A stretch of 24,000 nt of DNA from Devosia sp. (GTDB lineage: Bacteria; Pseudomonadota; Alphaproteobacteria; Rhizobiales; Amorphaceae). Under the pieces are notes generated by a model. The model worked only from the letters and a program-made list of their open reading frames with translations. It ran no database searches and was not told the origin of the DNA. Shown here in pieces: positions 8,114 through 13,181 of this stretch. Numbering within the stretch: the stretch's first letter is position 1; every line of letters begins with the position of its first letter. Made by a program: the position numbers and the translations under genes. The stretch covers positions 640,835 through 664,834 of the forward strand of contig CP136534.1 of assembly GCA_051016205.1 (NCBI GenBank), written 5' to 3'.

Positions 8114-9602
8114 GCCAGGTACCTCCGCGTTTGAAGTCGACAATAGGAATGGATAGAACGATTTTTGTGCCCACGGTGCATCGGTTCCAATCGATCGTGC
8201 CGCCGCTGTCGCTAACGGCTCTACGCACCATCCAGAGCCCGAGCCCGCCGTGATGGCCGAGCGGCCTCTTCGCGTCTGTGTCCTTTAGGATAGCCGCAGC
8301 TGCGTCAGGGATGCCGGGACCGCTATCCTTGACGGCAATCACGAGAATTGAGTTCCCTTCGGATATGAATATGTCGACCTCGATTTGAGTGCCGGCAGGC
8401 GATGCTATAGCTGCATTCAGCACTAGGTTGAGGAGTACCTGTCTCATTGGGGATCGCGGCACTGCTATTGCACCTTCGAGTGCGATGCGCCACGTTGCTG
8501 TCAATGAGCGCCGTCTGATCTCGAGACTCGTTAGCGTCCTTACGTCATCGACATCGCTCGGTCCGAAACCTGGCTTACCCCGTTCCGGGCGGTATACGTG
8601 GAGCGTTGCCTTGACGATGTCGCGAATGTCAGCGAGCCCTCGATCGATTAGTCGAGCGCTCCGTTGCCGAACCGACTCGTTATGTCCGTGTCTTTTTATC
8701 GTATCGACGGCGTTGAAGAGACCGCCGAGCGGATTGTTGATCTCATGGGCCATCCCTGATGCAAGGCGACCAAGGTCGGCCAATCTCTCCTCCTCAGCAA
8801 GCTGTTTTTCTAGAAGTCGCCTATCCTTCTGGGCGCGCGCCAGTGCGTTGTAGTGGGTGAAGAGGCGATGGCCCTCAGTGCCAATAGCAGGCATCCTCGG
8901 CAGGGGGATTTCGCTCGGGCCGGTCTGCGCATCCACGGCAAGATGTCTTGTGAGGATCTGCATCGGCTCAAGAAGCTTGATCACGACCAAGAATCCCAGC
9001 GCCGCACAACCGAGCGTGAGAAGGCCATTTGTCAAAAGCAAGAGCACCGTCACCTGGTGCCGCTCGGCGATCAGCGCTTCCACATCTATCAGTGTGGAAA
9101 TCGTTCCCACGTTCCGGCCCTCTGACGTTAGTGTTCGCCTTAGGGTCGCAGTTCCGGCGGCCGCATCGATGTGCGCGCCGCCGTCCAGCTTAGCGGCGCG
9201 AAAACTTGAGGGGAGCTCTCCGAGGGTGGGCGCTGTCGCCGGATCGGTTGCCGCGATGATTTGCCCAGCACTGTTCGTTACAACGGCCTCAAGAGGGCGC
9301 ACAGCGCCATTAGTTTCCAGCGACCGCTCAAGTGTTTCGAAAGCCGCCCATATGTCTTCGCGGGCAACGTAGGGAGTGAGAGCGGGTGCGAGCCCAGCGA
9401 GGTATGCATTCGCCAGATCGTCGATTTGCTGCGATTGCGTTTGGATGAGGCGGGACATAACGCGTTCCGACACAGCCACGCCGACGAAGATCATAAGGAT
9501 TGCAACGACCAGCGGGACCTTAATCACGAGAGGAAGCTTGGCCGCCCATTGCATCGGCAATCGTATCCAGTAGGATACTCCTGGGGGACGTTGATGTTTC
9601 AT
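8100..9602 (-). CDS. aioS: sensor histidine kinase AioS
   Basis: Two N-terminal TM segments flank a periplasmic loop. Has an H-box (MAHEINNPLGG), N-box (LLNLVLNAAIAS) and G-boxes (DSGPGIP, GGLGLWMV). Its ATG overlaps the aioX stop as ATGA (9602-9599). Confidence 0.85.
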   Translation of the reverse strand: MKHQRPPGVSYWIRLPMQWAAKLPLVIKVPLVVAILMIFVGVAVSERVMSRLIQTQSQQIDDLANAYLAGLAPALTPYVAREDIWAAFETLERSLETNGAVRPLEAVVTNSAGQIIAATDPATAPTLGELPSSFRAAKLDGGAHIDAAAGTATLRRTLTSEGRNVGTISTLIDVEALIAERHQVTVLLLLTNGLLTLGCAALGFLVVIKLLEPMQILTRHLAVDAQTGPSEIPLPRMPAIGTEGHRLFTHYNALARAQKDRRLLEKQLAEEERLADLGRLASGMAHEINNPLGGLFNAVDTIKRHGHNESVRQRSARLIDRGLADIRDIVKATLHVYRPERGKPGFGPSDVDDVRTLTSLEIRRRSLTATWRIALEGAIAVPRSPMRQVLLNLVLNAAIASPAGTQIEVDIFISEGNSILVIAVKDSGPGIPDAAAAILKDTDAKRPLGHHGGLGLWMVRRAVSDSGGTIDWNRCTVGTKIVLSIPIVDFKRGGTWHEAA

Positions 9603-10495
9603 CCTAGGCCGGCCGTAAGCATTTTTTGCCGGATCGGCTCGTAAAGTGACGCATCTCTCCGATCAAAACCATCAAGATGCAGCATCGCAAGAACCACTTG
9701 GCCGAGCGCATCTTCTTTTAGGGCCAAAACCGCGGCTTCAACCGCGGCTGTTGCCGCGGGATCTGCGGGTTCCCGTGGTGCAGCAATCGGAGGAAAGCCA
9801 AGCCACTCCGATTTCCAGACCGCCTTTACTTGAGCCCCAAGAGAAGGGTCGACAGCCGCGAGAACGTCGGCGACATAGCCGTCGACCGAGCCAGACTGCG
9901 CAAGTCCCGTCGCGACCGCCCGAACGACGTTTTCGTGACCGTAGGTGAAAAAGGTACGGGAGAAGTGTTGGTCCGGCTGTCTCGAGACAGTGGCAAGGTG
10001 AGCACGCGTGACAAGGTATCCGGAGTTCGAGTCAGGATCGGAGTATGCATGAATGTCTCCGACAAGATCGACAACGTCATGAGCGGCGCGGTTCGCCTGC
10101 GTGATGATATAGGACTGGTAGAGCGGCCGACCCTGCCATATCGGCACAGCAAGCAGCTTTAGAGCGCTTCGAAACCGGACGAACGGGTACCCGCAGATCC
10201 ACGCCGCGTCGAGCTCACGTGCGACAAGAAGCGTAGTGACTTCTTGGTAGGTCCGGCGCGATACGAGCTCGATGGAACGCCCCGTTGCGCGCTCTAGGTA
10301 AGCACGCATCGCTGCCAAAACCTCGGCATCGGTCGCGAGGAAAACAGGCGTTAAGCCAAAACGAATTGGCCGGCTAGCGCGAAGGCGCCGGCCAGCGAAG
10401 GGTGCAGTGCCCAAGGCGAAAACCAGAGCTCGCCGTGTGGGTCCACAAGCTAGGGTCGATGCCTTCAATGGCACACGCGTTTGCCCCCAACTCAA
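9599..10495 (-). CDS. aioX: periplasmic PhnD-like binding protein AioX
   Basis: Type-2 periplasmic binding protein fold signature (IRFGLTPV...ELDAAWICGYPFV...SNSGYL). The N-terminus is signal-like (TRRALVFALGTAPFAG). It is the first gene of aioXSR, as in model clusters. The exact start is uncertain: TTG 10495 or GTG 10474. Confidence 0.8.
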   Translation of the reverse strand: MSWGQTRVPLKASTLACGPTRRALVFALGTAPFAGRRLRASRPIRFGLTPVFLATDAEVLAAMRAYLERATGRSIELVSRRTYQEVTTLLVARELDAAWICGYPFVRFRSALKLLAVPIWQGRPLYQSYIITQANRAAHDVVDLVGDIHAYSDPDSNSGYLVTRAHLATVSRQPDQHFSRTFFTYGHENVVRAVATGLAQSGSVDGYVADVLAAVDPSLGAQVKAVWKSEWLGFPPIAAPREPADPAATAAVEAAVLALKEDALGQVVLAMLHLDGFDRRDASLYEPIRQKMLTAGLG

Positions 10496-10636
10496 GTTTC
10501 ACGCTTCGTCCGGCGTGTTCGATGGAAATGTAGCAAAGGTTTTTCTCGGACGACAGGGCAACACACTTCACCACCGCACGCAGGACGGCCCCAGCTGAGT
10601 CGTTCCAGTCTAGGGTTGACACAAATCCGACAATCG

Positions 10637-10652
10637 TGGATTCATGAATCCA
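10637..10652. promoter_or_regulatory. perfect 16-bp palindrome TGGATTCATGAATCCA, candidate ArsR operator
   Basis: The sequence is self-complementary when read directly. It ends on the A of the arsR-arsC start codon and covers the putative -10. Confidence 0.45.
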
Positions 10653-11521
10653 TGAATATAAAGAACGAAAGCGAAGCACTTGCGGCGCTGGGCCATCCGG
10701 GCCGTCTCGCCGTGTTTCGGCTATTAGCTCGACGCATGCCACAAGGGGTCCGACCTAGTGAGATTGCCGGCGCGCTTCGCCTGAAGCCAAACACACTGTC
10801 TGTCTATGCAGGCATCCTGACGCGCGCTGGGCTTTTGAATACCTGGCGCGACGGTCGCTCTGTCTACTACGGCGTGAACTTGGACCGGTTCGGTGAGCTT
10901 GTAAGATATCTAGTCCACGATTGTTGTCACGGGCGGCCAGAACTCTGCCTTGATGACTCAGGGGACGAAGAAGTTACGGTCGCCGGGCGCTCCGGACCGT
11001 ATCATGTACTATTTGTCTGTACGGGAAACTCAGCCCGATCAATCTTTGCGGAAGCGTTGCTTGGCCGGATGGGACATGGCCAGTTTGTTGCCCATTCGGC
11101 GGGAACTAAACCCTACTCGCGCGTCAACCCCAAAGCCGCATTGGTCTTGCAATCGGTTGGCGACGATCCGGGTAAGTACTCACCGAAATCGGCCAATAAG
11201 TATCTCGACGATGGATCCGCCAGAATGGATTTCGTCGTCACGGTCTGTGACCGAGCGGCGAACGAAGATGCACCGCCCTGGCCGGGACGGCCAATGATTG
11301 CGCATTGGGGTGTATCCGACCCCGTCAGTGCTGGCAATGACAACCAATTAAAGCCCTTCGAGATCGCCTTCCGAGCACTCGAGCACAAGGTTAAGCGCTT
11401 CGCCAAGCTGCCGCTTGACACCATGCGACCGACCGAAATCCAAGCCGCTCTCGACGACATCGGCCAAAACCGAGACAAGCGCGGCCCTGCGCCACGTGGC
11501 GCCAGAAACCATCAAGTGTGA
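10652..11521 (+). CDS. arsRC: ArsR-family metalloregulator fused to an LMW-PTP-type arsenate reductase (ArsC) domain
   Basis: Starts at the internal ATG 10652 of track ORF 10481..11521. The N-terminal winged HTH (LGHPGRLAVFRLLA...SEIAGALRLKPNTLSVYAGILTRAGLL...GRSVYY) ends in DCCHGRPELC. It is followed by an LMW-PTP/ArsC domain: P-loop VLFVCTGNSARS, TVCD and HWGVSDP. Confidence 0.85.
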   Translation: MNIKNESEALAALGHPGRLAVFRLLARRMPQGVRPSEIAGALRLKPNTLSVYAGILTRAGLLNTWRDGRSVYYGVNLDRFGELVRYLVHDCCHGRPELCLDDSGDEEVTVAGRSGPYHVLFVCTGNSARSIFAEALLGRMGHGQFVAHSAGTKPYSRVNPKAALVLQSVGDDPGKYSPKSANKYLDDGSARMDFVVTVCDRAANEDAPPWPGRPMIAHWGVSDPVSAGNDNQLKPFEIAFRALEHKVKRFAKLPLDTMRPTEIQAALDDIGQNRDKRGPAPRGARNHQV

Positions 11522-12171
11522 ATGGCGGAGTAGCGATCTTGGCACGGCTAGCTGTCAACGGACTTGGCCAGATTGATAAACTTGTGCTTCGGCGTCTGAT
11601 CCGAACGAGCGGATGTCATGAGATTGCACTTTTGAACGCTCCCGCCGGCAACCCGGCTCAGCACACGACGCTTATAGAGTTTGATTCCGCCCATGGTCGC
11701 TGGCTGGAAGCGTTTGGCTTCGATCATGGAAGCCTCAGCGTTGACGTTACGCTATCGCCGTTTGTCCAGGTGAGACGGATCGAAGACCTCCCGCTCGCCA
11801 CCCATGGAATTGACATCGTGGTAGATTGCACTGGCGTCTTCACATCCACGGAAGAGGTCGAGCTTTCCTTTAGAGCTGGCGTACAAAAAGCCGTGATATC
11901 GGCGCCGATAAAAAATGGTGCGCTCTACCTCGTGATAGGCGTCAGTCAACATCTCGATAAAGTTGGTAAGCGCCGAAACATCACGGCTGCAATTTGCACA
12001 AAGAGCTGCGGCGCCTCAGTCGTCAGAGTCCTTCACGAAGCGATTGGGATCAAGTGCGACTCAATCACTACAATCCACGACTTCAGAAACACACAAACAA
12101 TCGTTGATCACCCTGCAAGAAACAATGACTGGGAGGTCTCGCCGTGTCGAAATGGCGTGTCTATTCTGTAG
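11518..12171 (+). pseudogene. truncated, degenerate glyceraldehyde-3-phosphate dehydrogenase-like gene
   Basis: 217 codons, collinear with about the first 200 residues of GAPDH (VNGLGQIDKLVLRRL..., IDIVVDCTGVF, AICTKSCGASVV = SCTTNC region, ITTIHDF..TQ..VD....DW). The NAD loop GRIGR is GQIDK. The whole C-terminal 40 percent is missing. The GTG start overlaps the arsRC stop as GTGA. Confidence 0.6.
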
Positions 12172-13181
12172 TTGCATTTACTCTAGGTGGTCTGGGAGCC
12201 GCTGTCGCCCAAGAACCTATTGATATCGTCGGATCATCGACTGTGTATCCCTACACCAAACTTGTAGCTGATGCTTTCGCCGAACAGGGCAAGCACCCGC
12301 CACCAACCATTCGCTCGACGGGCACAGGTGGCGGGATGGCTGTCTTCTGCGCAGGCATAGGACCCGATTACCCAGACATGACCGGGGCATCACGGCCCAT
12401 GAAGCATTCCGAGTGGGAGATATGCCGCGACAACGGCGTGTTCGACATAACCGAGATGATGATTGGATATGATGGACTCACTCTTGCCACACCTCGGACG
12501 ACAGATGACGATTTCATCCTAACCCTTCAGGATCTCTACACAGCACTCGCTAAAACCGTGCCCATCGACGGAGAGCTCAGACCAAATCCCCATACTACGT
12601 GGGCCGACGTTCGCTCCGAACTACCCGATATCCCTATTTCCGTTATTGGCCCGCCACCGACGTCAGGCACCCGGGATTCCTTCGAGGAGCTGGCGATGCA
12701 GGGGGGCTGCCGGATGTATCCGGTCTTGGCGGCCCTTGAAGATACTGACGGGGATGAGTGGACGCGTATCTGCTCAACGATTCGCACAGACGGTCCGTTT
12801 GTTGAGGGCGGTGAGGATGATGAAGAAATCGTACGGGTTCTCTCCGAAAAGCCCGGTACGTTAGGTATATTTGGCTACTCATACTACTATCAGAACACCT
12901 CGATACTAAAGCCTGTTTTGATCGAGGGTATTTCGCCAGATTTTCTATCGATCTCAACTCGAGAATACCCGCTTTCTCGCCCTTTATATCTATATATTAA
13001 AAATGAGAGCCGAGAGTTTACTCCTGGAATTGTAGACTTTATAAATGAATTTTTGTACGGAGCCTCGCCAGGGGGATATTTGTTTGTGTCAGGTCTTGTG
13101 CCTGTTCTTGACGATGTTGAGCGGGAAACAATCGCCGCCTACGCAATTGACGGGGAAGAAATGCTACCGCCCGCAGACTGA
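12144..13181 (+). CDS. pstS: PstS-family (PBP-like 2) phosphate/oxyanion-binding protein, paralog 2
   Basis: GTG 12144 lies 7 nt after GGGAGG. Has a signal peptide (VVAFTLGGLGAAVAQE). Oxyanion-site motifs GSSTVYPYT, STGTGGGM, TGASR and PPTSGTRDSF are present. Collinear with the pstS at 15996..17042. Confidence 0.85.
   Translation: MSKWRVYSVVAFTLGGLGAAVAQEPIDIVGSSTVYPYTKLVADAFAEQGKHPPPTIRSTGTGGGMAVFCAGIGPDYPDMTGASRPMKHSEWEICRDNGVFDITEMMIGYDGLTLATPRTTDDDFILTLQDLYTALAKTVPIDGELRPNPHTTWADVRSELPDIPISVIGPPPTSGTRDSFEELAMQGGCRMYPVLAALEDTDGDEWTRICSTIRTDGPFVEGGEDDEEIVRVLSEKPGTLGIFGYSYYYQNTSILKPVLIEGISPDFLSISTREYPLSRPLYLYIKNESREFTPGIVDFINEFLYGASPGGYLFVSGLVPVLDDVERETIAAYAIDGEEMLPPAD

Follow-up and report, generated by a model that had tools for sequence, protein, structure and literature searches.

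An ArsR–ArsC fusion gene, arsRC, lies in the 24,000-nucleotide stretch of DNA analyzed here (the window), and its product is a genuine, ordinary and well-conserved protein of a family that is widespread and has been described before. The fusion itself is known; what is unusual is that this copy belongs to a recurrent minority of two-cysteine variants and has survived as an orphaned regulator. Our preferred reading, to which we give a probability of about 0.6, is that ArsRC is an autoregulated ArsR repressor joined to a pI258-like reductase domain, which converts As(V) to As(III) and senses the product itself with no need for thioredoxin recycling. Such a fusion would make a single protein able to respond to arsenate. 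The gene and its domains are as follows.

10652..11521, + strand: arsRC, open reading frame of the 289-aa ArsR–ArsC fusion protein P0001 (ORF read, profile matches, AlphaFold2 pLDDT 91.4, pTM 0.88)
10670..10948, + strand: AfArsR-like ArsR/SmtB winged-helix domain, residues 7-99 (NF033788; phmmer and Foldseek against 6j05)
10922..10948, + strand: putative CC-x6-C As(III) site, C91/C92/C99 (aligns to the Cys95/96/102 region of AfArsR)
10949..11002, + strand: acidic, flexible inter-domain linker of ~18 residues, residues 100-117 (pLDDT 57 for residues 101-110)
11003..11476, + strand: LMW-PTP-type ArsC domain, residues 118-275 (PF01451 and PDB matches)
11018-11041, + strand: P-loop C123-TGNSA-R129-S130 (invariant in 157 relatives)
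11246-11248, + strand: C199 in TVCD, the Cys82 equivalent (invariant in 157 relatives)
11270-11272, + strand: Ala207, replacing the third cysteine (family alignment columns)

The reading frame is uninterrupted and carries an ArsR winged helix-turn-helix and an LMW-PTP ArsC together, as the original prediction had stated, and both domains are matched by profiles and by structures. Residues 7-92 matched ArsR/SmtB models and residues 119-250 matched LMWPc/ArsC models. The ArsR domain scored below the cut-offs of the generic HMMs (NF033788, 41.9 bits against 55; PF12840, 17 against 27), and the nearest solved structure to this N-terminal half was AfArsR from Acidithiobacillus ferrooxidans (PDB 6j05), with a phmmer E-value of 2.9e-11 and a Foldseek TMt of 0.85-0.92. 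The ArsC domain exceeded the PF01451 cut-off (E 6.2e-11). Its best PDB match was Deinococcus indicus ArsC2 (8p5n, E 9e-17; 8p6m), followed by the pI258 and B. subtilis ArsC proteins, with Foldseek TMt values of 0.85-0.90 against all three and of 0.86-0.90 against ArsC2 and pI258 ArsC. Its score against the pI258-type equivalog model TIGR02691 was far under the cut-off (47 bits against 174.3), as was that against TIGR02689 for the Synechocystis-type, glutathione/glutaredoxin-coupled enzymes (34.9 bits against 157.6). The Cys80-x-Cys82 pair of the latter type is absent from the protein sequence, C199 being followed by D-R with no second cysteine. Because the equivalog scores are this low, reductase activity is predicted from motifs.

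An AlphaFold2 model of the protein, built on 150 relatives, was confident except for residues 101-110 of the linker and for the tail at the C-terminus, which scored low. A Foldseek search with this model returned no solved chain covering both the ArsR and the ArsC domain. When the ArsR domain (1-108) and the ArsC domain (113-275) were predicted as a complex, the score was 0.27, against a mark of 0.32. Linker length and sequence differ from member to member in the family alignment.

The original prediction had called fused arsRC genes rare, and this part did not hold. A word-indexed search with the protein returned 5,207 proteins of near length at E <= 1e-3; the best 120 of these were all full-length, nearly all with HTH_20 and LMWPc matches, and were mostly alphaproteobacterial, with Acuticoccus, Stappia, Albimonas and Paracoccaceae among the sources. 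At E <= 1e-30, an exhaustive search of representatives found 147 clusters. With each species represented by a single genome, at least 584 genomes encode an ArsRC relative. The protein is collinear over its full length with 157 relatives. A frameshift or assembly artefact separating arsR from arsC, which the original prediction had named as a possible refutation, is ruled out because the same one-frame architecture recurs across all relatives. Several genomes of this taxonomic family or order (G017:C5:179124-179983, G019:C38:553-1436, G020:C3:418790-419660, G034 and G039) carry ArsR-like and ArsC-like genes that are separate but adjacent. The fusion may plausibly have arisen from such pairs, or the pairs from its splitting.

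An earlier study characterised an ArsRC fusion from Paracoccus (Chen et al. 2022, Environ Microbiol 24:1977, as summarized in PMC11672702). According to that summary, it combines an As(III)-sensing ArsR domain with an arsenate-reducing ArsC domain and improves As(V) detection. The present protein shares with it the single-polypeptide architecture, the two domains with their predicted functions and the alphaproteobacterial origin, and belongs to the same family, which heads gapdh-arsJ operons. Compared with the published description as summarized there, it differs in lacking the third cysteine and in lacking gapdh-arsJ. One Paracoccus locus in our own set (L078) is of a type without cysteines at the ArsR site, unlike arsRC here.

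The protein contains five cysteines in total: C91, C92, C99, C123 and C199. No ELCVCDL-type site, as found in R773, occurs in it; instead, the DCCHGRPELC segment of the ArsR domain aligned with the CCHG...C As(III) site of AfArsR (6j05), as had been proposed from the sequence. The two proteins share the winged-helix fold and a C-terminal site at the same place. They differ in spacing, CC-x6-C in ArsRC against CC-x5-C in AfArsR, and ArsRC runs on into the reductase domain where AfArsR ends. The P-loop CTGNSARS begins 24 residues past C99, close to the roughly 25 first estimated. C123 and C199, the equivalents of Cys10 and Cys82, had been recognized correctly, and each is conserved in 100% of 157 full-length ArsRC proteins, as are R129 and S130. 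D223, in a DP pair, is present in the ArsC domain as the putative general acid. Conservation at the ArsR site is somewhat lower (C91 95%, C92 92%, C99 86%), and the third ArsC cysteine, C207, is found in 93% (146/157).

The family consensus of the loop after the Cys82 equivalent is TVCDxAANE[ED]CPPWPG, and the present protein reads TVCDRAANEDAPPWPG in alignments of both 25 and 157 sequences. In these alignments the Cys89-equivalent column is occupied by Ala207, and Asp206 is the usual acidic residue preceding it. The original prediction was thus right that the thioredoxin-facing cysteine is lost and one residue off in naming Asp as its substitute. The codon at this position is TGC in L003, GGC in L008 and GCA here. 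No extra cysteine elsewhere in P0001 makes up for the lost C207. The domain shares with the thioredoxin-coupled LMW-PTP enzymes (pI258, B. subtilis and D. indicus ArsC2) the fold, the CX5R-S motif, the equivalent of Cys82 and the general acid in a DP pair. It differs from them at the Cys89 equivalent and so resembles, in a natural protein, the C89L mutant of pI258 ArsC.

In the pI258 type, Cys10 attacks arsenate, Cys82 resolves the adduct and the disulfide then passes to Cys89, which sits on a helix that has looped out; there thioredoxin attacks Cys89 of the Cys82-Cys89 disulfide (PMC2714181). The crystal structure of the C89L mutant captured the disulfide intermediate (PDB 1lk0). In analogy to this chemistry, we propose a catalytic and sensing cycle for ArsRC in which arsenate would bind in the P-loop and be attacked by C123, and C199 would resolve the adduct, releasing As(III) and leaving a C123-C199 disulfide. 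The adjacent C91/C92/C99 site would then capture the As(III), taking the repressor off the DNA, as AfArsR and the published ArsRC work suggest. The original prediction had raised the capture of nascent As(III), in agreement with the review's summary of that work (PMC11672702). Since the third cysteine that thioredoxin attacks is Ala207, recycling would be slow or would use another reductant such as glutathione. By the same comparison, each ArsRC subunit should still use C123 and C199 to produce one As(III), with canonical thioredoxin recycling barred. A single turnover per subunit would be stoichiometrically sufficient for sensing. One As(III) per C91/C92/C99 site would suffice, which would explain why the third cysteine has been repeatedly lost without loss of the operon.

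The phylogenetic distribution of this loss was then compared across the family. C207 is gone in 11 of the 157 members, scattered over the tree, which Fitch parsimony explains with ~9 changes; one of the 11, P0128, carries a cysteine two residues earlier. The nearest relative of the protein is P0003, with Gly207 (sister support 0.975), from a metagenome contig (L008) that bears aioXSR-aioBA on one strand and arsRC on the other, with gapdh and arsJ intact. The two proteins are 56-58% identical, a distance at which synonymous sites are saturated. Intact gapdh-arsJ operons are headed by two-cysteine members from three lineages (L008, P0172 and P0142), of which P0172 and P0142 are unrelated and do not adjoin aio. 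Because the loss of Cys207 is common to L008, whose operon is intact, it is older than the gapdh-arsJ deletion described below and compatible with a working operon. With ~9 losses, three of them with the operon intact, the thioredoxin-facing cysteine seems dispensable for the role of ArsRC, which argues that the ArsC domain serves mainly signal conversion and not bulk detoxification. A link between the two-cysteine state and aio adjacency was considered and ruled out: the aio-linked L048 and L081 keep three cysteines, and the two-cysteine P0120, P0142 and P0172 are not aio-linked.

The original prediction had further suggested that a cysteine of the ArsR cluster could substitute for the resolving thiol, forming an inter-domain disulfide with C199 or C123 and so coupling catalysis to derepression. 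C99 lies a mere 24 residues ahead of C123 across a flexible linker, and P0001 has no compensating cysteine elsewhere; both points speak for such a relay. The family comparison gave it no support, however: the full CC..C triad is not commoner in two-cysteine members (9/11) than in three-cysteine members (125/146), two-cysteine members without any ArsR cysteine exist (P0131 and P0205), and a search across the family for a co-varying cysteine found none. We consider this relay very improbable.

A rival to the As(III) hand-off itself is that the ArsC domain is the sensor, with arsenate binding or C123-C199 oxidation allosterically freeing ArsR from DNA and the CC-x6-C site playing no part. It draws on a subclade of Rhodobacter, Tabrizicola, Paracoccus and related genera, 20 of 83 species genomes, in which the ArsR As(III) site is cysteine-free while the three-cysteine ArsC and gapdh-arsJ are kept, on P0131, which holds just the C123 and C199 equivalents, and on the AlphaFold2 pTM of 0.88, which suggests a defined inter-domain arrangement. 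It has to contend with the full triad in the present protein, with the presence of C91, C92 and C99 in 86-95% of relatives, with the As(III)-sensing ArsR domain described for the Paracoccus protein in the review summary (PMC11672702), and with the absence of Cys207, without which the large redox-helix loop-out of pI258 ArsC cannot occur. We regard direct sensing by the ArsC domain as unlikely for this protein, and retain capture of As(III) by C91/C92/C99 as the preferred route. For the family as a whole, the cysteine-free sites in 20/83 species genomes indicate that As(III) capture would not be the sole possible signaling route, and together with the losses of the third cysteine they suggest that more than one route is in use.

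The cysteine-free subclade (loci L048, L050, L052, L058, L061, L065, L071, L073, L075, L076, L078, L081-L083, L086 and L088) reads DVGRARPDLL where others read DCCRGRPELC, and judging from these residues an AfArsR-type site could not be used for signaling there. The CC..C As(III) site is typical of the ArsRC family and not universal in it.

The region upstream of arsRC contains the following elements.

10616..10659, + strand: promoter/operator region of arsRC, with TTGACA, a palindrome and TTC-N10-GAA (sequence read)
10616-10621, + strand: TTGACA (sequence read)
10637-10652, + strand: perfect 16-bp palindrome (sequence read)
10641-10656, + strand: TTC-N10-GAA element TTCATGAATCCATGAA, overlapping the ATG (family-type motif)

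A scan for the sigma-70 consensus made no promoter call for arsRC. TTC-N10-GAA occurs within the last 40 nt before the start codon at 73 of 84 arsRC loci, compared with a mean of 1.1 in shuffles, and is the likely ArsRC operator, judged from this motif conservation. It sits at -18 in 64/84 loci and at -11 here. Among the 84 loci the element frequently takes the form ATAATTCATG-N4-CATGAATTAT and borders on the start codon, a placement that suggests very short leaders or none. An ArsRC dimer would bind TTC-N10-GAA over its own start codon, a position that fits autoregulation.

The genes flanking arsRC are listed here.

9599..10495, - strand: aioX (PF12974 E 2.8e-43)
11518..12171, + strand: truncated, decaying ArsJ-type gapdh (NF033735, tblastn, conserved-column test)
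12144..13181, + strand: intact PstS-like binding-protein gene (PF12849 E 1.4e-33)

In about 75 of 83 relatives' loci, gapdh directly follows arsRC, and arsJ comes next wherever the contig reaches. The usual order is arsRC-gapdh-arsJ, often then a PstS-like binding protein, as in L001 and L003 (arsRC-gapdh-arsJ-pbp). At some loci (L011, L013, L014, L019, L022 and L029) acr3 lies between arsRC and gapdh-arsJ, so that a single ArsRC would control both the efflux of As(III) and the extrusion of As(V).

Here, arsRC does not head a gapdh-arsJ operon: gapdh breaks off at residue 196, and neither the window nor the rest of the 6.48-Mb genome contains arsJ. This context had escaped the original prediction, whose domain anatomy otherwise stands. 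The gene behind arsRC is of the ArsJ-associated GAPDH type of the GAPDH-ArsJ pair (NF033735, 171 bits, model positions 2-189 of 323). In contrast to that pair, it retains only the N-terminal 196 residues, in degenerate form, and has no arsJ partner. It starts with a GTG that overlaps the stop codon of arsRC, and tblastn homology is limited to 11539-12123, corresponding to residues 1-196 of 336. The stump is old: of the 99 columns with at least 90% conservation in 73 relatives, it deviates at 29, whereas the relatives themselves deviate at 2 (median) and at no more than 9. The open frame at 11518-12171 extends over 217 codons and runs into the start region of the pstS-like gene. Since the sister locus L008 is intact, the absence of gapdh-arsJ is a secondary loss. 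The PstS-like gene, which follows arsJ in relatives, stands directly behind the gapdh stump, and its product is 59% identical to the operon-terminal binding protein of L003; it is the last cargo left in the operon.

A broken operon, with gapdh truncated and degenerate and arsJ absent genome-wide, could mean that the regulator is unneeded and on its way to becoming a pseudogene, the lost cysteine being an early sign of decay. The long branch of the protein, with a root-to-tip distance of 1.81 where the median is 1.19, would fit such a relic. Against this, the ORF is intact, the TTC-N10-GAA operator is kept, and the cysteine loss predates the deletion, being common to L008 with its intact operon. 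Moreover, arsRC matches the family at 66 of the 69 conserved columns, the exceptions being P190A, C207A and R246K. Three deviations lie in the normal range of the 157 ArsRC proteins (median 1, mean 3.3; rank 52/157) and give no sign of a general relaxation of constraint. Given 3/69 changes in arsRC and 29/99 in the gapdh stump, constraint on arsRC appears to have persisted through the decay of its cargo, and we hold the relic explanation to be highly doubtful. Under the preferred reading, the gapdh-arsJ extrusion genes once controlled by ArsRC would have been destroyed, and the conserved regulator left with itself, the gapdh stump and the PstS-like gene near the aio island. The locus offers a clean case of a regulator outliving its own operon, next to an arsenite-oxidase island.

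On the other side, aioX is the first gene of a divergent aioXSR-aioBA-moeA arsenite-oxidase cluster and shares a 156-bp intergenic region with arsRC; aioS, aioR, aioB, aioA and moeA were identified beside it. The aio-divergent layout of arsRC is likewise found in L008 and L048. ArsRC copies from other genomes of the same genus are merely 50-56% identical, a comparison in which G004 coincides with the Acuticoccus record behind P0004. Because of this low identity, the present copy probably came with the aio island and not by descent. A more speculative extension, which we advance only tentatively, is that ArsRC in its two-cysteine form serves only as a single-turnover converter and sensor. Its reductase domain would have shed the thioredoxin recycling step, and each subunit would make the single As(III) that takes it off the DNA, with no net arsenate reduction; in an arsenite oxidiser this would avoid undoing the work of Aio. 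After the loss of gapdh-arsJ it would have been retained to put the PstS-like gene, and perhaps the aioXSR promoter, under arsenate control.

A whole-genome search found no Acr3 or ArsB. An R773-type ArsC is also present in the genome. At 5.552 Mb (L005:5145-6388), the gene for a stand-alone three-cysteine LMW-PTP ArsC (TVCDSAAGETCP) runs into the beginning of one for a MIP-family channel, through which arsenite would leave the cell as through AqpS. At 6.419 Mb (L006:5111-6532), a second ArsR with a CC pair only (ECCTG, no third Cys) lies directly upstream of an ArsP-family permease, a pairing that resembles methylarsenite-selective ArsR-ArsP systems.
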